Below are positions 5,239 to 59,939 of a stretch of 64,000 nucleotides of DNA, piece after piece. The notes under the pieces are model-generated. The model did no database searches. It had not been told where the DNA came from and was given only the letters and a program-made list of their open reading frames with translations. A program made the position numbers and the translations under genes. Source of the stretch: Spirochaetales bacterium (GTDB taxonomy: Bacteria > Spirochaetota > Spirochaetia > SZUA-6 > JAFGRV01); assembly GCA_016928415.1 (NCBI GenBank), contig JAFGKU010000097.1, positions 3,229 to 67,228 on the forward strand, given 5' to 3'. Positions within the stretch are counted from its first letter, which is position 1; each line of letters opens with the position of its first letter.

Positions 5239-6592
5239 GTTCCCGTCTGGTCCCCGAATGTACAAAACAGCCTTTTATACCCTTGGATGCAAACTGAACC
5301 AATTTGAAACGGAATCCCTGGCGGACGCTTTCCGGAGGCAGAAATTTACCCTGGTGGATTACCATGAAAAGGCCGACCTTTATATCATAAATACATGCAC
5401 CGTTACCTCTAAAAGCGAGCAGAAAGCCAGGCGGATGATAAGAAAGGTTTTATCCGAAAATCCCTCCGCCCTGGTCCTTGTGACGGGGTGTTATGCCCAG
5501 CTCAATGCGCAAACCCTCGCCGACCTATCGGACCGTGTGGTGGTGGTGCCGCAGGACAGCAAGGAAAAAATCTTAAGCCTCGCCGGAAGCCTTTCGGATA
5601 TATATTCCCCTTCACCCCTGCACAGGGAAGACCTTGCTGCTTTGCTTGACGGAATCCCCGTCACGGGTAATCGATTTGCGTTTGACCCGGGAGACTACGT
5701 TTTCCATTCACGTGCTTTTGTGAAGATACAGGACGGCTGTGACGGACAATGCGCCTACTGCCGTGTACCATTGGCCAGGGGAAAATCGGTGTCTCTTGAC
5801 GGGAAAAAGATCCTTGAAAGGATTCATCTGGTTCTCGGCAAGGGCTTTCGTGAAATTGTTCTCACGGGAATCAACATATCCTCTTATTCCTGGAAGGGAA
5901 TGAATCTGTCCGGCCTCCTGTCTTCGATTTTACGCATAGACAAACCTTTCAGGCTCAGGCTTTCATCGCTTGAGCCTGAAAAAATCGGGCCTGATCTGAT
6001 AGACGTCGTAAAAAACGACAGGGTCTGCCCGCATTTTCACCTGCCGGTTCAGTCCGGCTCGGATACCGTGCTTTCCGCAATGAAGCGGCGGTACAAAAGT
6101 GAAAAGGTGAGGGAGGCCGCTGCCGCATTACGGCGCGCCAGACCGGACTGCTTCCTGGCCGCCGATGTGATTACCGGCTTTCCCGGCGAAAGCGAAGAGG
6201 ATTTTAATCGGACCCTGGAGCTTGTCCGGGATATCCCCTTTTCGTATCTGCATGTGTTTCCTTTTTCACCCCGTCCCGGCACAACGGCATTCCATTTTAA
6301 ACGGACGACGGCCGCTTCGATCATTAAAAAGCGCACGGAGAAGATGATTGCCTTATCCTCGCGCTTACACGGCCAATACCTTGACCTCTGGCCTGGCAGC
6401 GTGCTGGAAGTGGTTCTGGAAGAGGATTGCACGGAGCCGGGAAGCGAAAATAGAATGTGGAAAGGCCTATCCGCCAATTATTGCCGCTGCTTCGTATCAG
6501 GCATGCCCGAAAAACAGGCCTACAGGCGGAACAGCGTTTCCGTGCTTGTTGAAAAAACCGACGGGCAGGCACTTTATACGAAATATTGTTAA
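5231..6592 (+). CDS. mtaB: tRNA t6A37 methylthiotransferase MtaB
   Basis: TLGCKLNQFET and INTCTVT (UPF0004 domain), radical SAM CDGQCAYC, HFHLPVQSGSD and HVFPFSPRPGT. Confidence 0.9.
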   Translation: MNKFPSGPRMYKTAFYTLGCKLNQFETESLADAFRRQKFTLVDYHEKADLYIINTCTVTSKSEQKARRMIRKVLSENPSALVLVTGCYAQLNAQTLADLSDRVVVVPQDSKEKILSLAGSLSDIYSPSPLHREDLAALLDGIPVTGNRFAFDPGDYVFHSRAFVKIQDGCDGQCAYCRVPLARGKSVSLDGKKILERIHLVLGKGFREIVLTGINISSYSWKGMNLSGLLSSILRIDKPFRLRLSSLEPEKIGPDLIDVVKNDRVCPHFHLPVQSGSDTVLSAMKRRYKSEKVREAAAALRRARPDCFLAADVITGFPGESEEDFNRTLELVRDIPFSYLHVFPFSPRPGTTAFHFKRTTAASIIKKRTEKMIALSSRLHGQYLDLWPGSVLEVVLEEDCTEPGSENRMWKGLSANYCRCFVSGMPEKQAYRRNSVSVLVEKTDGQALYTKYC

Positions 6593-20203: not shown

Positions 20204-22150
20204 ATGGAAATGGACACCCAATCGGCAAAAAAGACGCTTTTACTGGTTTCCGTCGGCAATAAGGCACGTACCATAAAATCCACATTAAAAAAGAATGCTG
20301 CCAATCTTTTCTTGATAAATGAAAGCCGCTCCCTGTCGTCCGCCCTGGAGTTTCTTGAAAAAAATCCGTGTCACATCATACTGCTTGATATGAATCTCAA
20401 GGATTCCCCCGGTCTTGAATCGTTGAAGGTTGTTTATGATAAATATCCGCAATTGCCCGTGATCGTCGTTCTCGATGACAGCGAGCAGATTGATTACATG
20501 GAGCTGATTGTCAACGGCGCACAGGAGTGCCTGCCCATGGCCGAATTCAAGGATGAAAATATTGTCAAGTATATTCATTCCGCCATCAAGCGCAAGGAAA
20601 TGGAAATCAACACAATCAATCTGAAGGATGAGTACGAAGGCATCAAGGTGCTTTTAAGCGAATTGAAAAAAAGAAATGAAGAGCTGACCAAAATGGACCA
20701 GCTGAAAACCAATTTTATTTCAATTGTTTCCCATGAATTGAGAACACCTCTTACTTACATAAAGGAAGGAATATCCCAGGTTTTGGAAGGGCTCCATGGT
20801 GAAATTAATGAAGACCAGAGGGAATTCCTCTCTATCTCCCTGGAGGGAGTGGACCGGCTGAAGGAAATCGTCAATAACCTTCTCGATATTTCCAAAATCG
20901 AGGCAGGCAGGATACAATTACGCAAGTCTTTCATGGATATTAATGAAGTTGTTACCAGGGTAGTCAATGATTTTCAAACCGTGTACCGGAAAAAAGGCAT
21001 TGTTCTGGATTTAGACCTGCCGGGGACACCGCTTAACACATATATTGACCGGGAGAAAATTATTCAGGTTATTACCAATCTTCTGTCCAATGCCTATAAA
21101 TTTACCGAACGCGGAAAAGTGACCGTCAAGGTTGAGGATAAGCCGGGTTATGTATTATTGTCGGTCCGGGATACGGGTGTGGGAATTACCGAAGAAAATT
21201 TAAACAAGGTATTCGATAAATTCGTGCAGGTAGGAAGGACGGACGGGCCGGGTATCAAGGGGACCGGCCTGGGTCTGGGTATTGCCCGCGGCCTGGTGGA
21301 GCAGCACCGGGGAAAAATGTGGGCTGAATCCGAATCGGGCAGGGGCAGTGTATTTTTTTTCAGTATTCCCTATCTCGATTCACTGCAGGTAGTGCAGGAA
21401 GTTATCCGGGATTCGATTATTGATGCTGATTTGCACAAGTCGGAATTTGTCATTCTTTTGGTAAAAATTGAAAATATAGACTATTTGGAGCCGGATGTGT
21501 TTCAATTGGGCACGGATACCGTGCTCAATTCCATAGAAGATATTGTGAGAAATGTCCTGAGACGGGGCACGGACCAGATATACCGGTTGTCGCGGGATGA
21601 ATCGATAATCATTCTTCCGGATACGAAATGGGAAGGGGCCCTTTCACTGCGTCACCGGTTTACGGAAAAAACAAGGGCCTACCTGGGTGAATTGGAGAAT
21701 GATTACAGGATAAAGGTTAATATTGATCTCGGGATGTCCGGATTTCCCAGGGATTCGGATAAATCGGATATCCTCCTGGAAAAGGCAAGGGCGAACCGGA
21801 AAGACCTTTACCTGGGTGATGAACGGCGGCACGCAAGCCGGCTGCCCGTGGATATGATCATAATCGGCGCCAATAATGACGGGGAAAAAAAGGAATTCAA
21901 GACCATCAACATCAGTCTCGGCGGGGTTTGTTTCATTTCGCGGAAATATATCAGCCTTCCGGAACATAACGAAATCGAAATATGTTTACCGGAGGAATAC
22001 GGAAATATCCGTGTAAAAACCGTCATATCATGGACGGAAAAACTGGAGGACCTGGATGAGTACCAGATCGGATTGAAATTCATGGATCTTGGAGATAAAG
22101 AAAGGGACAAACTGTTCAGGTTTATTGAATTGTCAAACAGGAAAGCCTGA
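20204..22150 (+). CDS. Hybrid histidine kinase: receiver-like, HisKA, HATPase, degenerate GGDEF, PilZ
   Basis: SHELRTPL H-box, NLLSNAYKFT, DTGVGI and GTGLGL. GGDEF-like segment RRGTDQIYRLSRDES. PilZ motifs RRHASR and NISLGG. Confidence 0.85.
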   Translation: MEMDTQSAKKTLLLVSVGNKARTIKSTLKKNAANLFLINESRSLSSALEFLEKNPCHIILLDMNLKDSPGLESLKVVYDKYPQLPVIVVLDDSEQIDYMELIVNGAQECLPMAEFKDENIVKYIHSAIKRKEMEINTINLKDEYEGIKVLLSELKKRNEELTKMDQLKTNFISIVSHELRTPLTYIKEGISQVLEGLHGEINEDQREFLSISLEGVDRLKEIVNNLLDISKIEAGRIQLRKSFMDINEVVTRVVNDFQTVYRKKGIVLDLDLPGTPLNTYIDREKIIQVITNLLSNAYKFTERGKVTVKVEDKPGYVLLSVRDTGVGITEENLNKVFDKFVQVGRTDGPGIKGTGLGLGIARGLVEQHRGKMWAESESGRGSVFFFSIPYLDSLQVVQEVIRDSIIDADLHKSEFVILLVKIENIDYLEPDVFQLGTDTVLNSIEDIVRNVLRRGTDQIYRLSRDESIIILPDTKWEGALSLRHRFTEKTRAYLGELENDYRIKVNIDLGMSGFPRDSDKSDILLEKARANRKDLYLGDERRHASRLPVDMIIIGANNDGEKKEFKTINISLGGVCFISRKYISLPEHNEIEICLPEEYGNIRVKTVISWTEKLEDLDEYQIGLKFMDLGDKERDKLFRFIELSNRKA

Positions 22151-52236: not shown

Positions 52237-52383
52237 ATAAACCTCCTGTTTTACTTTTGACAGGACAACCGCGCCGGAGGACCTGTCAAGGCTTCAGCGA
52301 AGCTGAACCCCGACGAAGGAGGGGCTTGGCCTTTACAGGTCCGAGGAGTGGTGTACAATGGAAGAAACAGGCAGGAGGTTTAT
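52237..52383. repeat. Multi-stem palindromic element
   Basis: Outer 12-bp perfect IR ATAAACCTCCTG/CAGGAGGTTTAT and inner GGACCTGTCAAGG/CCTTTACAGGTCC enclosing two hairpins. Confidence 0.75.
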
Positions 52384-52630
52384 TTCTTGTGGAACCCGTA
52401 GGGATAATACGTTTTTCCCCAAGTTTTTCGATTTGTTATCCAACTGACTCTCCCAAACACCCATAGGGGCCAAAAACTTCCAGAACGTAAGTGCGTGTTT
52501 ATCTCACTTAACTACCGGTTTCCCTAGGCAAGAATCCGCGGGCGTGGGCCCGTGCGCAGGGATCCGCTCCTGTCCGCGTAAATCTGCGGTTGAAATCAAA
52601 CCCAAAATCCCCTATCATATATATTAAGAC

Positions 52631-53839
52631 ATGAACAAAATCCTCAGGCTGCTTATTATGCAGGACCAATCCAATATTAATCGTTTTTTCAATGAGGAAA
52701 CGACGAATTTCCGGAAAATATATCCTGACATTGAAATTGACATCGAATACATACCCTGGCACATGGCCTCGGGCAGGATCATCCAATGCATCAAGGAAAA
52801 ATCGGGTCCGGATATCATTCAGATAGGCAGCACCTGGTTCCGGCCGTTACTCCAATTTGACAGCTTCATGGATTTAAACGACGAATTCAAGGATGTCAAT
52901 GAAAAGAATTTCGCTTCCGTGGCCCTTTCCGTATGCCGGCCGGCGAACGAAAACCGTCTCCTGGCCGTACCATGGTTTCTTGATATCCGGGGTTTGAACA
53001 TCTACCGGAAGGCCATGGATGCCGCCGGCATTAACCCGGACCTTCTGAAAGACCATTTGGGATTCATGGAAGCCTGCCGCTTGGCCCAGAAATCTTTCAG
53101 GGCATTGAATTGCGTGCGTTCTATCGGCATCCTGATTCTCCACGATCTATCCCCCTGGATCTGGAATTTCGGCGGGGACTTTTTTACGGAGGACGGAACG
53201 GATATCCTTCTGGATTCCGAGCCGTCTGTGGCGGGAATGGACTATTATTTCAGTCTTATCCATGAATTCGAGGGTAAACAGGAGAACGTACTCGACTCGA
53301 AAAGGCTGGGCCTGTTTTTCAACGATCCCAGGCATGTTTTCTGCAGCGGTGAACTGGGGCCTGCCATTATGTTTTTCAAAAAGGATTCGGACAGGTACAA
53401 TGCCAGGATTGCCGGGGAATACGCTGTTGCCAGCCTGCCGGCCGGACCGGCCGCGTCGTATGTGTTTGCCGGAGGCAGCTGCCTTGCCGTCATGAATTAC
53501 ACGCAGAACAGGGATATGGCGATCGAGTTTCTCCGTTTCCTGCTCAGGAAGGAAACCCAATACAGCCTGACCCTGTGGACGGGGTTTGTACCCTGCCTCA
53601 TTTCCGCCTTCGACGAAGTGTGCCACGTCTGGAAGAGCGGCAAGCAGGTTTTAACGGAATCTCTGGAAAAGGCCCACATGTTCCCATCCCATCATCTCTG
53701 GCCGACGATAGAGGGCCTGATCAGCGGATTCTGCGCCAACGTCATGCGGTATGTGAATACGGGAAGCTATACAAAATCAATCCTGGTGGATGAACTGGAA
53801 ACCGTATCCAGGCAGATCCGCTATATCATAAGGCAATGA
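52631..53839 (+). CDS. Family 1 sugar-type solute-binding protein lacking a signal peptide
   Basis: YPDIEIDIEYIPW, PDIIQIGSTW, AVPWFLDIRGL and FAGGSCLAV. There is no hydrophobic N-terminus, and an in-frame TAA lies two codons before the ATG. Confidence 0.82.
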   Translation: MNKILRLLIMQDQSNINRFFNEETTNFRKIYPDIEIDIEYIPWHMASGRIIQCIKEKSGPDIIQIGSTWFRPLLQFDSFMDLNDEFKDVNEKNFASVALSVCRPANENRLLAVPWFLDIRGLNIYRKAMDAAGINPDLLKDHLGFMEACRLAQKSFRALNCVRSIGILILHDLSPWIWNFGGDFFTEDGTDILLDSEPSVAGMDYYFSLIHEFEGKQENVLDSKRLGLFFNDPRHVFCSGELGPAIMFFKKDSDRYNARIAGEYAVASLPAGPAASYVFAGGSCLAVMNYTQNRDMAIEFLRFLLRKETQYSLTLWTGFVPCLISAFDEVCHVWKSGKQVLTESLEKAHMFPSHHLWPTIEGLISGFCANVMRYVNTGSYTKSILVDELETVSRQIRYIIRQ

Positions 53840-53858
53840 ACGGGAGACATCCATTGAT

Positions 53859-55373
53859 ATGAACGGGGACCGGCTTTTAAACACCATTAACGGCATCATC
53901 ACCTGTTTCAATTACTCAAACACGGATAGTGCGGCAATAAAGGAATCCCTGAGGATGATCTACAACGATTTTCCGTTTATTGTCCTGGTTTATTATTTCT
54001 CTGACGATCATTCCCGGGCTTTTCGTTCGTTCATACGTATGGACCGTTTCGGTATCAGGGAAATGTCCTATTACGGCGGCCAATTACCCGATCACTTATT
54101 CCGAGATATTCAGTCCACCGAATCCTCATACGCCATCGGTGATGACGGCAATCTTTGGCTGAAAGTATCGGCAAAAAACAGGGAACTGGGAATCATGCAC
54201 GCGGCAAACGAGGAAGTGGAGGACATTGCCTATCTGCAGCGAAGAGACGAAATAAGCGAGAGTGACCGTTTGCAGCTGGAATCCGGTAAAATCGTATTTG
54301 ACGATGAGACCATCAATTATTTCAGCCAGATATGCCGAATCCTCGGGACATGCCTCGCCAACAGGTCCGTCCCGGTTGAAGCTGACCGTGGAAGCCAGAC
54401 TGTGACGCGGTTTTCCTCCATCATTTCAGAGATCATAGGCACCTTTGACATAGATAGGATCCTTTCCTTGCTGATCATGCACGCGGTTAAACTCCTTTCC
54501 ATCGACAGGGCCCGCCTTTACCTTGTTGATGCGGGGGAAGGTGTAATCAGGGGAACCTTGCGATATGAATTGCTTTCCGGGCTGACCGGTATTGAGAACC
54601 AGGAATTTCCATTGATGAAGGAAGACAATTCCGTGCTGAATTTCTTTCAGGCCGAACTCGATGCGGTTTTTCCCGGAACCAGCCTATACAGGGATTTGAT
54701 CAGGGTCACGCAGCTGAAGGTCAAACAGAAGATAATCGGCTTTTTTATAGTGGATAATTTTGTCTGCCGCCAGCCGATCAGTGAATCGGATTCCCAATCG
54801 CTCGATGTCCTGCTCCAGCAGGCAAGCGTGGCCATTGAAAACGCGCAGCTTTACGGGGAAATAGAAGTTCTGGCCACACGGGACAGCCTGACCGGGTTAT
54901 TTAATTCCCGTTACTTTAACAGTCAGCTTGAACTGCAACTTAAAAAAACAGAACGGTACGGTGACACGTTTTCTGTTCTGATGATGGATGTCGATTTTTT
55001 CAAGAATTACAATGATGCTTACGGCCACCAGACGGGCGACATGATCCTGCAGGAAATTGGTAAAATTATCAGCAAAGCCGTGCGTGAAACGGACGTAGCC
55101 GCGCGTTACGGCGGAGATGAGTTTATATTGCTGCTCCTGGATGCGGATTTTAAAAAGAACGGTGTGATTGCAGAAAGGATAAGGCAAGCGGTGGAGTCAA
55201 TGAGCATTGTAAATGATGATTCCAACCTGTACCTGACCATAAGTATCGGCGGCATTACCCTCAACGGCGATACGATCCCCTCAGAGCAAATCATCGAACA
55301 GGCCGACAAATGCCTTTATGAGGCTAAAAAGAACGGACGTAACAGATGTGTTGTCAAAAAAATCGTGGCTTGA
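53859..55373 (+). CDS. Soluble diguanylate cyclase (GAF plus GGDEF)
   Basis: DSLTGLFN, DVDFFKNYND, RETD I-site and RYGGDEF. GAF-like segment upstream and no TM. Confidence 0.92.
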   Translation: MNGDRLLNTINGIITCFNYSNTDSAAIKESLRMIYNDFPFIVLVYYFSDDHSRAFRSFIRMDRFGIREMSYYGGQLPDHLFRDIQSTESSYAIGDDGNLWLKVSAKNRELGIMHAANEEVEDIAYLQRRDEISESDRLQLESGKIVFDDETINYFSQICRILGTCLANRSVPVEADRGSQTVTRFSSIISEIIGTFDIDRILSLLIMHAVKLLSIDRARLYLVDAGEGVIRGTLRYELLSGLTGIENQEFPLMKEDNSVLNFFQAELDAVFPGTSLYRDLIRVTQLKVKQKIIGFFIVDNFVCRQPISESDSQSLDVLLQQASVAIENAQLYGEIEVLATRDSLTGLFNSRYFNSQLELQLKKTERYGDTFSVLMMDVDFFKNYNDAYGHQTGDMILQEIGKIISKAVRETDVAARYGGDEFILLLLDADFKKNGVIAERIRQAVESMSIVNDDSNLYLTISIGGITLNGDTIPSEQIIEQADKCLYEAKKNGRNRCVVKKIVA

Positions 55374-55388
55374 TCTACAGGATAATCG

Positions 55389-57353
55389 TTATTCTTTTAT
55401 TTCCGCAATCAAATCGGTGATTTTTTTTGACAATTCGCCAATTTTAAAGGGTTTGGGGATAAATCCTTTCACCCCTATCTGAAGCAGTTCCTGTATTTCA
55501 CTGTCAATACTGTACCCTGAGGCTATAATCACGGGTATACGGGAATTTATTTTTTTCAATTCCAAATAGACCTCTTTTCCTGACATGACGGGCATTATCA
55601 TGTCCAGGATGACGCAGTCTATGTTCTCCTGGTTCTTTTCAAAGAATTTGATTGCCATGTTGCCGTCGGCGAAAATTGTAGACCGGCATCCAATTTTGGT
55701 GAGCATCTCGGATATCACGTTTCGTACCACTTCTTCATCCTCAATGACCAGTACATGGACGGGATTTTTATTTGGTTTGTCCGTTCCCTTTATTATCATA
55801 CTCTCCGGGGTAATCTTGTCTGCGTCTCGTCTGATGGGAAAGTATATACCGAAACTTGTCCCGGCATTGATTCTGCTGGATACCTCGATGCAGCCTTTGT
55901 GGGTTTTTACCGTGCCGTAAACGGCGGCCAGGCCGAGGCCCGTTCCTTTGCCCGGCCCCTTTGTCGTAAAAAAAGGCTCGAAAATATGTTTCAAGAGGTT
56001 TTCTTCCATGCCGGATCCCGTATCATCGACGCCTATCCGGATATAATCCCCTGGTTCGATATTGAATAACGACTTCGAGCAGAAGCTCTCATCCAGATGG
56101 ACATTGGATGTGGAGAAAGTAAGTTCTCCGCCGTCCGGCATGGAATCCCTTGCGTTTAATGCCAGGTTAAGTACCGAGTTTTGTAGCTGGGTCGGGTCTC
56201 CAACCGTGGTATGTTTGCCGGCATTCAGCATTGGCTTGATTCTAATTTTTTTATCAAGGCTGTGGCTGAGTATATTGATCACCTCCCTGATTATCTGGTG
56301 CAGGTCGACGTTCACCGAAGTATATTTACCCTTACGGGAAAAAGCGAGCAATTGGGCGGTTAGGTCCGCCGCCCGCCTTGCCCCCAGTAAAATTTTATCC
56401 GAAAAACGCACCAGTTCCGGATTGCCCTCCGTCGCTTCCTTGAGCAGTTCCGCATATCCCATGATGCCTACCAGTTGATTGTTGAAATCATGCGCTATGC
56501 CTCCCGCCAGCTGTCCAATGGCCTCCATTTTTTCCGTCTGGCGCATTTTTGTTTCCATTTCCTTGATGTCGGTAATATCCCTTATGGTGCCGATCATTTT
56601 CACGGGATTTCCCGAAGCATCGAAATCAAGTTTACCGTGGCCGTGAATCCACCGCTCCTGTTTATCATTGAAACGGATAATTTTGTATTGCTTGTCAAAG
56701 GGTTGTCTTTTCTTTACAACCTGAATACTCAGGTAATCAACCATTATCTCTTTCCAGTCATCCTGAATCAGGGAGACCCATCCTTCAACATTTTTGGGAT
56801 ACTCATCCGTTATCCCGAAAATTTCATCAAGCACTTTGGAGCTTTTCCAGTACCCTGATTCAATATCCAGTACATAGCTGCCTGTCTGGGCTACGGCCTG
56901 AGATTCCAGGAGGGTCCGTTCGCTTTCGCGAAGGGATTTTTCGACATTTTTCAATTCCGTAATATCCCTGGATAATTCACAAAAGCCGATGACTTTTCCC
57001 TCGCGGATGACCGGGTTAAAGGAGAATATTATATGCCTTTCATTGTTTTCACCGAAACTTTGTGTCCATTCCTCGGTGAATTTTTCTCCATCAAGCACGC
57101 GCCTGTGCAGATTGTCCCAAAAGGCGATACCTTCCTTGTCGGGGAGCAGCTTATGCGGTTTGATTCCCGGTTTCATGTCTATACCGAGCGCCTGTTTCAT
57201 GGCCATGGCATAGGCAGTGTTGAAAGCGATGGGGAATCCGTTTTCATCCGCTATCATGATATAATCAGTGGTGTTTTCCATTAATATTTTAAGCAGATCA
57301 GCGGATTCTGTTATTTTTTTGTCCATATTTTTTGCACCTGTTTCAAGTCCCAA
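55389..57353 (-). CDS. Soluble PAS-PAS hybrid histidine kinase with C-terminal receiver
   Basis: LAGGIAHDFNN, NLALNARD, EPFFTTK, GTGLGLA and a REC domain (IED, LDMIMP, ASG, KPF). Confidence 0.92.
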   Translation of the reverse strand: MGLETGAKNMDKKITESADLLKILMENTTDYIMIADENGFPIAFNTAYAMAMKQALGIDMKPGIKPHKLLPDKEGIAFWDNLHRRVLDGEKFTEEWTQSFGENNERHIIFSFNPVIREGKVIGFCELSRDITELKNVEKSLRESERTLLESQAVAQTGSYVLDIESGYWKSSKVLDEIFGITDEYPKNVEGWVSLIQDDWKEIMVDYLSIQVVKKRQPFDKQYKIIRFNDKQERWIHGHGKLDFDASGNPVKMIGTIRDITDIKEMETKMRQTEKMEAIGQLAGGIAHDFNNQLVGIMGYAELLKEATEGNPELVRFSDKILLGARRAADLTAQLLAFSRKGKYTSVNVDLHQIIREVINILSHSLDKKIRIKPMLNAGKHTTVGDPTQLQNSVLNLALNARDSMPDGGELTFSTSNVHLDESFCSKSLFNIEPGDYIRIGVDDTGSGMEENLLKHIFEPFFTTKGPGKGTGLGLAAVYGTVKTHKGCIEVSSRINAGTSFGIYFPIRRDADKITPESMIIKGTDKPNKNPVHVLVIEDEEVVRNVISEMLTKIGCRSTIFADGNMAIKFFEKNQENIDCVILDMIMPVMSGKEVYLELKKINSRIPVIIASGYSIDSEIQELLQIGVKGFIPKPFKIGELSKKITDLIAEIKE

Positions 57354-57491: not shown

Positions 57492-59939
57492 TTACGGCAA
57501 TGTATTCAGGTAAGCCCTGTTGCTTATAACAAATGAATTGTTGTTCTGGTAGCTGTCCCAGTTTATGGACCAGGCCATGATACCGCGCAATCCTGAATAC
57601 GAATTATTGATTGTCGTGAATGCGGACTGCAGTTCCGAATTGGAGACCTGTCCGCTGCCCGCCGCGCTTGCCGAAGCGGGTACGCCGATCACTACCTGAT
57701 CCGCACGCAATCCGGGGAAGAAATGGCTGGCGTCCTGGTTCACGTTGAATCCCGTGATCACCATCTTACACATCGCCACGATGGAAGCGGCGTTCCCCAT
57801 TGTGTAGTACTGGCCGTCCGTTCCGAGAATGGCGCCTGAATTGTACAATTGCGCATGGACATAGGTTGTTCTGCTTCTTAAGGCATGGATCATGGGAATC
57901 CAGACACCGGCCCTGGTATCAACATAAGGATTCAAACCGCCGTAGTATTGATAGCCTAACTGGAGATAGAATGTTTCCGGCGCCCAGGACAGGATAAAGT
58001 TGGAACTGTAGGAATTGACGATCTGGCTGATGGCCGAAATCATGTTTACGACCTTGGGAGAGGTGGGATTCGCGAAATCGGGGTCCGCACCGGAATTGAA
58101 CTGGACGGATGACTGTTCCAGATCGATGTCGATACCGTCAAACCCGTATGAGCTGATGTAACCTTTTATCGCATTGACGAATGTCGATACGGCGCTTGAT
58201 GATGTGAGCGAGAAATAACCTTCGTATCCGCCTATGGACAGCACGATTTTTTTGCCCCTGCTCTGCATGGTCCGGATATCCGCCCTGAATTCCGCGTCAC
58301 CGTATGACGCATCCCCGGAGGAGATGGAGAAGGTCATCTGGCCATTCGTGCTTCCGGCTGAAACCGGTACGGCAAAGGCGATGTTGATGACGTCCCAGTT
58401 CGAATTGACCTGTGCCAGCGGTATAAACGGATTACCGCTGTCCCATGTATGCCAGTACCCCACCATGATGCGTTTGGGCAGTCCCGTGTTGGGAATGGTG
58501 GGGACGGGGGTAGCCGTAGGGGTCCTTGTCGCGGTTGCCGTGGCCTGGACGGGAGTGGGCGTCCTGGTTGGCGTTGATGTAGATGTAGCCTGTTGCTGCG
58601 TGGGTGTTGCCGTGGCCGTGTTATTTACGACCCCGAAAATTTCCCATTCGGACAACTGCAGTATGGTGCCCGAGTTGTTTGTCATGTTCAGCCTGTAATA
58701 GGAATAAGAGTTGCCGTTATTGAAAGAGAATGTCCTGGTCTGGAACCTGTTGGGAAAATCCTCTCCCGATCGGGAATCAAGTGTAATCCATGTAGAGCCG
58801 TTGGTGGAACCCTGCAGGGTCCATGTGTACGGGTCCCTTTCCGCCGCATCATTGGCAGAAGAGATGGTATACTGAGTGACTACGGCATTTGATCCTGCGA
58901 ACTGTACCCAACCTGATGCATGGAAAGTTAAATATTTTGTAGATGTCGAATTGTCGATCAATTTATCAATTTCTTCGTTCGTAGGTGAATCATAGTATTG
59001 TGCGCTCACTGTTCCCGTTAAATTGGTGATGTCCTGAAGGTTTACCGGGGTCGTCGGTGTCGATGTGTAGGACGGACTGGTGGGTGAGGGCGTTGATGTC
59101 CGCGTTGGGGTGGCCGTATTCGTGGTGCCTGTGGTTCCGAAGATTTCCCATTCGGACAGCTGCAATATGGTGCCCGAATTATTTGTCATGTTCAGCCTGT
59201 AATAGGAATATGAGGTGCCGTTACTGAAAGAGAATGTCCTGGTCTGGAACCTGTTGGGAAAATCCTCTCCCGACCGTGAATCGAGGGTAACCCATGTGGA
59301 ACCGTTGGTGGAACCTTGAAGTGTCCAGGTATAAGGGTCCCTCTCGGCCGCGTCATTGGCCGAGGAAATGGTATACTGAGTGACTACGGCGCTTGGTCCC
59401 TGGAACTGTACCCAGCCGGATGCATGGAAGGTCAGGTATTTTGTGGAAGTGGTGTTGTCAATTAATTTATCAATTTCTTCGTTCGCAGGTGAGTCATAGT
59501 ACTGGGCGGTGATCGTGCCCGCCAGGTTAGTGATATCCTGGAGAGTTGCAGGCGATGATGGGGTAGGTGTTGATGTCCGTGTTGGGGTTGCTGTGGCCGC
59601 ATTGGTATTTGTTCCTGTGGCTGTGGCCGCCATGGTATTTGTGGCGGTCGCTGTTGCCGCCGCGGTATTTGTGGGTGTGGCTGTCGATGTGGCTGTTGGG
59701 GCTACCGTAACCCCGCTGACAGGTTTCCATAAAGTCGGTGTGTCTGCCGGATTCCAGTTTGCCCCGCACCAGGCGGTGTGGGTGATTATGGCTTCGTAGC
59801 TGCTTCCCAGGTAGGTCACAACGGTACCGGCCGTATAGGTTACGCCGCATACCCATTCCGCAGCATTAATGAAAGAAGCAAAAGCCAAGCTGAAGACAAT
59901 AAATAAAACGAGTAGTTTTTTCCTTTTTGTGATAATCAT
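57492..59939 (-). CDS. Secreted GH18 chitinase: CBM5/12, Thr-rich linker, two discoidin/F5-8-like modules, catalytic domain
   Basis: Signal peptide, W...Y.AG..VTY.G..Y (CBM5/12), two copies of DNxTSTKYLTF..SANDAAERDP, SIGG and FDGIDIDLE. Confidence 0.92.
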   Translation of the reverse strand: MIITKRKKLLVLFIVFSLAFASFINAAEWVCGVTYTAGTVVTYLGSSYEAIITHTAWCGANWNPADTPTLWKPVSGVTVAPTATSTATPTNTAAATATATNTMAATATGTNTNAATATPTRTSTPTPSSPATLQDITNLAGTITAQYYDSPANEEIDKLIDNTTSTKYLTFHASGWVQFQGPSAVVTQYTISSANDAAERDPYTWTLQGSTNGSTWVTLDSRSGEDFPNRFQTRTFSFSNGTSYSYYRLNMTNNSGTILQLSEWEIFGTTGTTNTATPTRTSTPSPTSPSYTSTPTTPVNLQDITNLTGTVSAQYYDSPTNEEIDKLIDNSTSTKYLTFHASGWVQFAGSNAVVTQYTISSANDAAERDPYTWTLQGSTNGSTWITLDSRSGEDFPNRFQTRTFSFNNGNSYSYYRLNMTNNSGTILQLSEWEIFGVVNNTATATPTQQQATSTSTPTRTPTPVQATATATRTPTATPVPTIPNTGLPKRIMVGYWHTWDSGNPFIPLAQVNSNWDVINIAFAVPVSAGSTNGQMTFSISSGDASYGDAEFRADIRTMQSRGKKIVLSIGGYEGYFSLTSSSAVSTFVNAIKGYISSYGFDGIDIDLEQSSVQFNSGADPDFANPTSPKVVNMISAISQIVNSYSSNFILSWAPETFYLQLGYQYYGGLNPYVDTRAGVWIPMIHALRSRTTYVHAQLYNSGAILGTDGQYYTMGNAASIVAMCKMVITGFNVNQDASHFFPGLRADQVVIGVPASASAAGSGQVSNSELQSAFTTINNSYSGLRGIMAWSINWDSYQNNNSFVISNRAYLNTLP

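Follow-up and report, generated by a model that had tools for sequence, protein, structure and literature searches.

We describe a pair of adjacent genes predicted to encode an all-cytoplasmic, two-protein signalling module, composed of a substrate-binding protein (SBP) that lacks an export signal and a soluble diguanylate cyclase. The pair occupies positions 52631 to 55373 of a 64,000-nucleotide stretch (hereafter the window) of the genome of a Spirochaetales bacterium (GenBank assembly GCA_016928415.1, contig JAFGKU010000097.1, positions 3,229 to 67,228 of the forward strand). The best explanation of our findings, to which we assign a probability of about 0.7, is that the SBP serves as a receptor in the cytoplasm, with an oligosaccharide as its probable ligand, and regulates the partner cyclase through direct contact; the two genes presumably form one operon. 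An original prediction made from the sequence of the window had proposed such an all-cytoplasmic sensing arrangement, and it is supported by both of the tests to which it was put here, namely the N-termini of orthologues and the conservation of the gene pair.

The first gene of the pair (52631-53839, forward strand) encodes a 402-amino-acid protein with nine Cys, recognized from its open reading frame (ORF), Pfam matches and an AlphaFold2 (AF2) model. It matches SBP_bac_1 (2.7e-15, 57.6 bits against a cut-off of 26) and SBP_bac_8 (1.9e-09), and an NCBIfam search returned no family model covering it. An in-frame TAA, read directly from the sequence, lies two codons 5' of the ATG (52625-52627, forward strand) and therefore excludes a longer N-terminus. 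In the AF2 model, which was built on 21 homologues (predicted local distance difference test score, pLDDT, 89.4; predicted template modelling score, pTM, 0.89), the protein starts where mature exported SBPs start, and its first beta-strand is formed by residues 3-11, leaving no room for a signal peptide. Signal peptides were scored throughout from hydropathy and alignment offset; by these measures the window SBP has neither a hydrophobic N-terminus nor a lipobox, and its maximum 19-residue hydropathy (1.29) falls at an internal position. No match to PF00528 or PF00005 was found on the 69-kb contig that holds the window (C166), in a genome with a total of 51 BPD_transp_1 and 72 ABC_tran genes. 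The original prediction had described an SBP that begins at the first strand of its fold without signal peptide or lipobox, just behind an in-frame stop, with nine Cys and with no ATP-binding cassette (ABC) permease or ATPase genes, and each of these features is borne out.

The second gene (53859-55373, forward strand) is co-directional with the first and encodes a 504-amino-acid protein with no transmembrane (TM) segment. The spacer between them, which we read as an operon junction, is 19 nt long (53840-53858, forward strand) and contains a GGGAG Shine-Dalgarno sequence (53842-53846) 12 nt ahead of the cyclase ATG. GGDEF is the only domain detected by Pfam (3e-48, 164.1 bits against a cut-off of 23.8) and NCBIfam (TIGR00254, 3.5e-54), neither of which finds an EAL domain. 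The AF2 model (pLDDT 82) shows an N-terminal GAF-like alpha/beta unit, GAF-A (residues 1-118; 53859-54212), a helical insert and long connecting helix (residues 120-193; 54216-54437; helices 120-128, 134-142 and 149-193), a second GAF-like unit, GAF-B (residues 198-300; 54450-54758), a signalling helix leading into the GGDEF domain (residues 309-340; 54783-54878), and the catalytic GGDEF domain itself (residues 345-501; 54891-55361), the last also delimited by Pfam and TIGR00254; all lie on the forward strand. The site RETD-x5-GGDEF spans residues 409-422, with the I-site RETD encoded at 55083-55094 and the GGDEF motif (residues 418-422) at 55110-55124. The RxxD thus stands five residues ahead of GGDEF (RETDVAARYGGDEF at residue 409), a spacing identical in all four paralogues described below, and R409, D412, R416, Y417, G419, D420 and E421 are kept in at least 90% of 15 orthologues. 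With its motifs intact the cyclase is predicted to synthesize cyclic di-GMP (c-di-GMP). The gap of 19 bp, the two motifs and the absence of TM segments are as originally predicted. Pfam GAF_3 rises above its cut-off only in the paralogue DGC3 (32.7 bits) and is weak or below it in the other cyclases. In Foldseek searches the best matches to the full-length cyclase are the PAS-GAF-PHY-GGDEF phytochrome-activated cyclases 5llw and 6et7, at a TM-score of just 0.3-0.36; the layout of a long helix running into GGDEF is also seen in these and in SiaD (7e6g), and SiaD bound to its activator SiaC (7e6g) is among the best matches to the stalk and GGDEF part.

The source genome encodes four paralogous SBP-cyclase pairs, on contigs C166 (the window), C102, C117 and C106. 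In that order, SBP identity to the window copy is 100, 49, 36 and 30% and that of the adjacent cyclases 100, 41, 34 and 27%, so that the enzymes diverge in parallel with their SBPs; the intergenic gaps are 19, 19, -4 and 13 nt. The stop-to-stop frames of the four SBPs comprise only 403-424 codons, which leaves no space for a leader in any of them, and the GGDEF and RxxD motifs are intact in 4 of 4 cyclases. A further signal-less protein of 808 amino acids (C175:8648-11074) is an SBP_bac_1-GAF-HisKA-HATPase_c fusion with no TM segment. It appears to be a cytoplasmic SBP-sensor histidine kinase, and hence a naturally fused counterpart that gives a clue to the two-gene module; because the SBP domain holds the N-terminal sensor position in this GAF-kinase fusion, it argues for an input role of the SBP. 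PF00528 and PF00005 matches are absent from all five of these contigs (C166, C102, C117, C106 and C175). By comparison, the ordinary SBP paralogues recovered by the same search (C237 and C172) have hydrophobic signal or lipobox N-termini, and each stands beside two permease genes.

Relatives of the SBP were sought by an exhaustive hidden Markov model (HMM) search of 1.84 billion cluster representatives, which gave 58 matches below 1e-30; a word-indexed protein search recovered just the SBP itself and one paralogue. The best ~27 HMM matches are 400-436 amino acids long with no N-terminal extension, while more distant ones are extended by 17-110 residues that include a strongly hydrophobic segment. 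In all, the N-terminal extension relative to the window SBP amounts to 0-10 residues in ~29 cluster representatives and ~25 loci, and the upstream DNA differs each time. Mapped on a 99-representative tree, the signal-less state requires only 2 changes, compared with a mean of 33 when states are shuffled, and the window SBP falls inside a 29-member signal-less clade, apart from a 42-member signal-bearing clade. This distribution is indicative of an ancient loss of the export signal in the lineage of the window SBP. The original prediction had allowed that orthologues might carry signal peptides and that the 5' end of the window gene might have been lost to the adjacent repeat cassette; the orthologues and the paralogues of the other pairs likewise lack signal peptides, and the 5' end has not been lost.

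Genomic context was read for the representatives and for 145 loci of a species-level genome collection, the partner cyclase being defined by an HMM of the N-terminal 330 residues built from the four cyclases of the source genome (the N-module). Outside the source genome we found 17 further pairs, in which a signal-less SBP gene is directly followed by a gene for a 454-546-amino-acid GGDEF protein. Pair loci are present in Omnitrophota (L199, L042, L044 and L045, with L029 near-identical to L199), Elusimicrobiota (L037, L040 and L041), a Clostridia metagenome-assembled genome (MAG; L033/L043), Caldisericota (L075), Spirochaetia (L094) and further MAGs (L034, L035, L036, L039 and L203); at L028 the contig ends within the start of the cyclase. 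The original prediction, which had made conservation of the pair a point to be checked, therefore holds with four pairs in the genome and 17 other loci across at least five named phyla. When only homologues whose downstream DNA could be read are counted, an N-module GGDEF gene comes next at 16 of 22 signal-less loci and at 0 of ~95 signal-bearing ones (Fisher p = 4e-15). Gaps in orthologous pairs range from -23 to +120 nt, with many overlaps of stop and start by 1-8 nt. Conversely, N-module matches are confined to SBP-adjacent cyclases bar a single unpaired homologue (L264), and each of 14 other pair-bearing genomes has exactly one full-length N-module cyclase, always the one adjacent to the SBP. 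GAF-A is the family-specific module, and we regard it as the candidate site of SBP docking.

The SBPs and the cyclases give congruent maximum-likelihood trees. In each, the source genome's own copies are resolved as ((own1,own2),own3,own4) with L029 as sister, and each contains an Omnitrophota clade (L035,(L042,(L044,L045))), an Elusimicrobia-rich clade with (L040,L041), and L033/L043. Together with the conserved pairing, this congruence indicates that the pair has been inherited, transferred and duplicated as one unit. The four-fold parallel divergence, congruent trees, 1:1 pairing and gene overlaps are the grounds on which we propose a coupling between SBP and cyclase.

Sequence comparison and a structural search with the SBP model (Foldseek) both identified CbpB of Clostridium thermocellum (7x0i; sequence E 4e-33) and betaGlyBP of Thermus thermophilus (7c63; sequence E 1e-30) as the closest solved relatives, with TM-scores of 0.83-0.86 (0.85 against both 7c63 and 7x0i). 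CbpB binds the cellodextrins G2-G5 (PMC9601137), and the ligands of betaGlyBP (7c63-7c71) are cello-, laminari-, sophoro- and gentio-oligosaccharides. The oligosaccharide ligand class put forward in the original prediction fits this homology to cello-, laminari- and sophoro-oligosaccharide binders. Positions in the pocket were assigned by counting along sequence alignments, those of betaGlyBP being taken from the titles of PDB mutant entries; W41, W67 and E117, which contact the ligand in betaGlyBP, correspond to W43, W69 and D118 of the window SBP, W43 also corresponding to W90 of CbpB, so that 3 of the 5 pocket positions examined are kept. W43 and W69 are invariant and D118 nearly invariant in the signal-less alignments. 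The equivalent of CbpB W296 is Leu in SBP1 and SBP2; elsewhere in the clade it is mostly Trp ('SGxWP'). The binding cleft, as judged from these alignments, is partly conserved and differs between paralogues, and the SBP ligand is likely to be a glycan. Glycan-related genes are found near many pairs, comprising GH18 (the window), GH16, CE2, GH35/42, GH2/72-like and glycoamylase-like genes, the last with a MalK-like ATPase gene. A chitin-specific reading prompted by the neighbouring GH18 genes is not supported, as other pairs adjoin different glycan genes.

We propose the following mechanism. An SBP of the CUT1 type and of the CbpB/betaGlyBP lineage, having lost its export signal, would stay in the cytoplasm and act as a stand-alone receptor, whose ligand would most probably be an imported or internally made oligosaccharide. 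As its partner we envisage a diguanylate cyclase of GAF-A/GAF-B/S-helix/GGDEF architecture that is soluble and dimeric. Whether the SBP is open or closed would determine whether it binds the N-terminal sensory part of the cyclase, probably at GAF-A; once bound, it would shift the helical stalk in register and thereby set how fast c-di-GMP is made, while the RxxD I-site would provide product feedback. Four elements of this scheme are inferred, namely that the two proteins touch, where the SBP docks, what class of ligand it binds and in which direction it regulates the cyclase. If AmiC-AmiR and NasS-NasT, compared below, are a guide, the apo-SBP may hold the cyclase inactive until ligand releases it, the opposite sign being about equally likely. 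The four diverged pairs could serve as four parallel inputs to the c-di-GMP network of the organism, and it is plausible that these are insulated sugar inputs. That network is evidently large, given 25 PilZ matches in the genome, which also has ~50 GGDEF-like matches.

Several observations weigh against this interpretation. Six signal-less relatives lack a cyclase neighbour (L046 and L047, both tandem arrays, and L053, L064, L201 and L202). A search of 40 genomes from the same order and family yielded no close orthologue, its best match scoring 145 bits against ~460 for the source genome's own paralogues, and the distribution of the module is patchy. Two stacking Trp residues are lost in the window SBP, W177 of betaGlyBP being replaced by Ile167 and W296 of CbpB by Leu, and the ligand may accordingly be something other than a beta-glucan oligosaccharide, or no sugar at all. 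Adjacency and co-divergence, moreover, are also what one would expect of an SBP that acts as an effector or of two partners linked only through metabolism.

In the effector case the SBP would be a receiver that binds the c-di-GMP made by its neighbour and acts locally on, for example, sugar metabolism or a transporter ATPase. A pair of enzyme and effector would account just as well as one of sensor and enzyme for the adjacency, co-divergence and translational coupling, and at one orthologous locus a lone MalK-like ATPase gene lies just upstream. We nevertheless think this improbable, since W43, W69 and D118, the residues for stacking against sugar and hydrogen-bonding to it, persist throughout the clade, the fused relative has its SBP at the input end of a GAF-histidine kinase that makes no c-di-GMP, and the literature that was searched yielded no SBP_bac_1 receptor for c-di-GMP. 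A metabolic role, in which the SBP would be a cytoplasmic sugar carrier, a buffer or an enzyme-like protein of oligosaccharide metabolism and the cyclase would be co-expressed with it without contact, is an unlikely alternative to which we still give some weight: a second signal-less clade occurs beside genes for cytoplasmic GH3 and GH94 phosphorylase enzymes with no cyclase, tandem arrays of signal-less SBP genes without a cyclase exist, and cytosolic single-domain SBP-signature proteins with other functions are known (PMC9602780). Co-expression alone, however, is no reason for partners to stay matched, as the congruent trees imply they have, across phyla and after four duplications inside one genome, or for the SBPs to pair 1:1 with a cyclase family recognizable by an N-terminal module of its own, and no one metabolic neighbour is conserved among the pairs. 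It is exceedingly improbable that the window gene is simply an ordinary exported SBP gene, 5'-truncated or mis-started, with a cyclase beside it by chance. A GC-rich repeat or structured element (52237-52630) does adjoin the gene, and the gene caller places the start at Met10 (P0001, 393 amino acids), which is even shorter than the 402-amino-acid reading, but the same N-terminus recurs in three paralogues and ~25 other loci with unrelated upstream DNA, the association with the cyclase is far from random (p = 4e-15), and the stop two codons upstream and the clade-wide signal-less state rule out a truncated or mis-started gene.

Beyond direct control of the cyclase by a cytoplasmic receptor, a more far-reaching proposal can be made, which we hold tentatively and consider somewhat more apt to fail than to stand as a whole. 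Cytoplasmic stand-alone SBPs would form a general, unrecognized class of receptors that dock on GAF-domain transmitters, whether two-gene cyclases or a fused histidine kinase; the four pairs would be insulated channels, each for a different imported glycan; and the receptor-enzyme logic would have moved between compartments, with Fibrobacter keeping a periplasmic counterpart.

The remaining features of the locus and its relatives are summarized here. The sole promoter-like site preceding the SBP gene is TTGAAA-17-TATCAT (52590-52618, forward strand), which has 10 of 12 consensus matches and ends 12 nt before the ATG; a scan of the region gave 6 such sites where 4.3 are expected, making this weak evidence for a promoter. 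No Shine-Dalgarno sequence precedes the SBP ATG within 52590-52631, and the mRNA leader may be very short or absent, that is, the SBP mRNA may be leaderless or nearly so. Convergent on the cyclase gene is a gene for a hybrid PAS-PAS-HisKA-HATPase-receiver kinase (55389-57353, reverse strand), with 15 nt between the two stops and no terminator-like site, and beyond it lies a GH18 chitinase gene with CBM5/12 and two discoidin modules (57492-59939, reverse strand). The window also contains one of the 25 PilZ matches of the genome, in a 648-amino-acid ORF (20204-22150, forward strand). An Rfam scan of the window returned one tRNA only and no c-di-GMP riboswitch. Elsewhere in the genome, 1.5 kb from the third SBP-cyclase pair, an 882-amino-acid cytoplasmic protein (C117:7005-9653) combines a LacI-type Peripla_BP_3 domain, a partial GGDEF match and an AraC helix-turn-helix domain, and is thus another binding-protein-fold sensor joined to c-di-GMP parts.

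Among the relatives, four or five signal-less SBP genes stand in tandem, with no adjoining cyclase, in Elusimicrobiota-type MAGs (L046, 48-6266; L047, 4962-6709; and a contig of JGI 3300075153). The unpaired N-module cyclase homologue (L264, 2969-4402), from the genome that also holds L053, has EGDG instead of GGDEF at its active site and is the single case of lost pairing, the catalytic motif having gone too. Ahead of the pair, loci of the Elusimicrobia type carry a gene for a conserved lipoprotein of ~280-325 amino acids (L036, 4125-4967; L038, 3995-4888; L040, 3972-4949; L041, 4018-4932), which has no Pfam match and the C-terminal sequence '...DIDGVRWE'; a similar protein is encoded near the unpaired L264 cyclase (5332-6186). 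The second clade of signal-less SBPs (~398 amino acids, 17 cluster representatives) has an N-terminus resembling that of the C175 fusion domain. Of its members on metagenome contigs (L117, 5001-6197; L116, 1668-2864), one gene follows GH3 and GH94 phosphorylase genes and another a PAS-GAF-GGDEF gene.

The inputs of most diguanylate cyclases are unknown. Here the input would be a separate, easily purified protein of a well-understood ligand-binding fold, and the signal could therefore be identified with simple binding screens. If our reading is true, c-di-GMP becomes the third output on the short list of cytoplasmic SBP-type sensors (AmiC and NasS), and the SBP-to-GGDEF logic of the Vibrio periplasm is also present inside the cell. 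With four co-diverged pairs, this one genome lends itself naturally to asking how partners stay specific to each other after duplication, and a sugar-responsive c-di-GMP switch may be of use in synthetic biology. For annotation, the current label 'ABC transporter substrate-binding protein' is misleading for signal-less SBP genes.

A review of SBP-mediated signalling lists only periplasmic SBPs acting on membrane GGDEF-EAL proteins, namely NspS-MbaA and ScrB-ScrC (PMC8050422), and a survey of SBP repertoires places ~1% of SBP-signature proteins in the cytosol with 'alternative functions' (PMC9602780). Our literature search, whose coverage did not extend to subscription journals, found no description of a cytoplasmic SBP_bac_1 protein paired with a cyclase. 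The original prediction had singled out the pair as the best candidate in the window for an undescribed system; it does appear to be undescribed, and since AmiC-AmiR and NasS-NasT exist we prefer to call it a variant rather than a system.

The pair resembles NspS-MbaA of Vibrio cholerae and ScrB-ScrC of V. parahaemolyticus in that an SBP homologue with no link to a transporter is encoded beside a GGDEF enzyme whose activity it is thought to set (PMC8050422). In the Vibrio systems the SBP lies in the periplasm and the GGDEF-EAL enzyme sits in the membrane with a periplasmic sensor domain, whereas both partners of the window pair are cytoplasmic and the enzyme has no TM segment or EAL domain, with predicted tandem GAF domains instead. 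What looks like a periplasmic, NspS-MbaA-like layout is found within the same SBP lineage in Fibrobacter (L091, L092, L100, L102, L103, L107 and L115), where SBPs with signal peptides are followed by GGDEF proteins of 558-605 amino acids whose TM helices, at about residues 8 and 280, flank an outer domain of ~270 amino acids. This layout possibly serves cellodextrin. The protein FSU_1047 of F. succinogenes is 31% identical to CbpB and is up on cellulose (PMC6851124), and its gene may be one of these Fibrobacter SBP genes.

AmiC-AmiR of Pseudomonas aeruginosa and NasS-NasT of Paracoccus denitrificans provide the cytoplasmic parallel, as their SBP homologues are signal-less and form a ligand-sensitive complex that controls a co-encoded ANTAR antiterminator (PMC3795266). 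The window pair likewise comprises a signal-less SBP-fold protein co-encoded with its proposed target. AmiC and NasS, however, belong to other SBP families (LivJ-like and NrtA-like), their ligands are amides or nitrate and their partner is an RNA-binding antiterminator, whereas the window SBP is of the CUT1 sugar-binding type with a predicted GAF-GAF-GGDEF diguanylate cyclase as partner. The module is therefore set apart from both the NspS-MbaA and the AmiC-AmiR families, each of which has defining features that it lacks. CbpB and betaGlyBP are like the window SBP in sequence and in fold, betaGlyBP also at the W43, W69 and D118 positions and CbpB at W43; they are exported lipoproteins that feed ABC permeases, unlike the window SBP, which has no signal, no permease or ATPase gene on its contig and two stacking Trp fewer. 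On the enzyme side the closest parallel is SiaC-SiaD of Pseudomonas aeruginosa (7e6g), in which SiaC, a small separate protein of the cytoplasm, binds and switches SiaD, a soluble GGDEF cyclase with a helical stalk. SiaC does not belong to the SBPs and responds to phosphorylation state rather than to a ligand, and SiaD has no GAF domains, yet SiaC-SiaD is a precedent for control of a soluble cyclase by a separate protein bound to its stalk.

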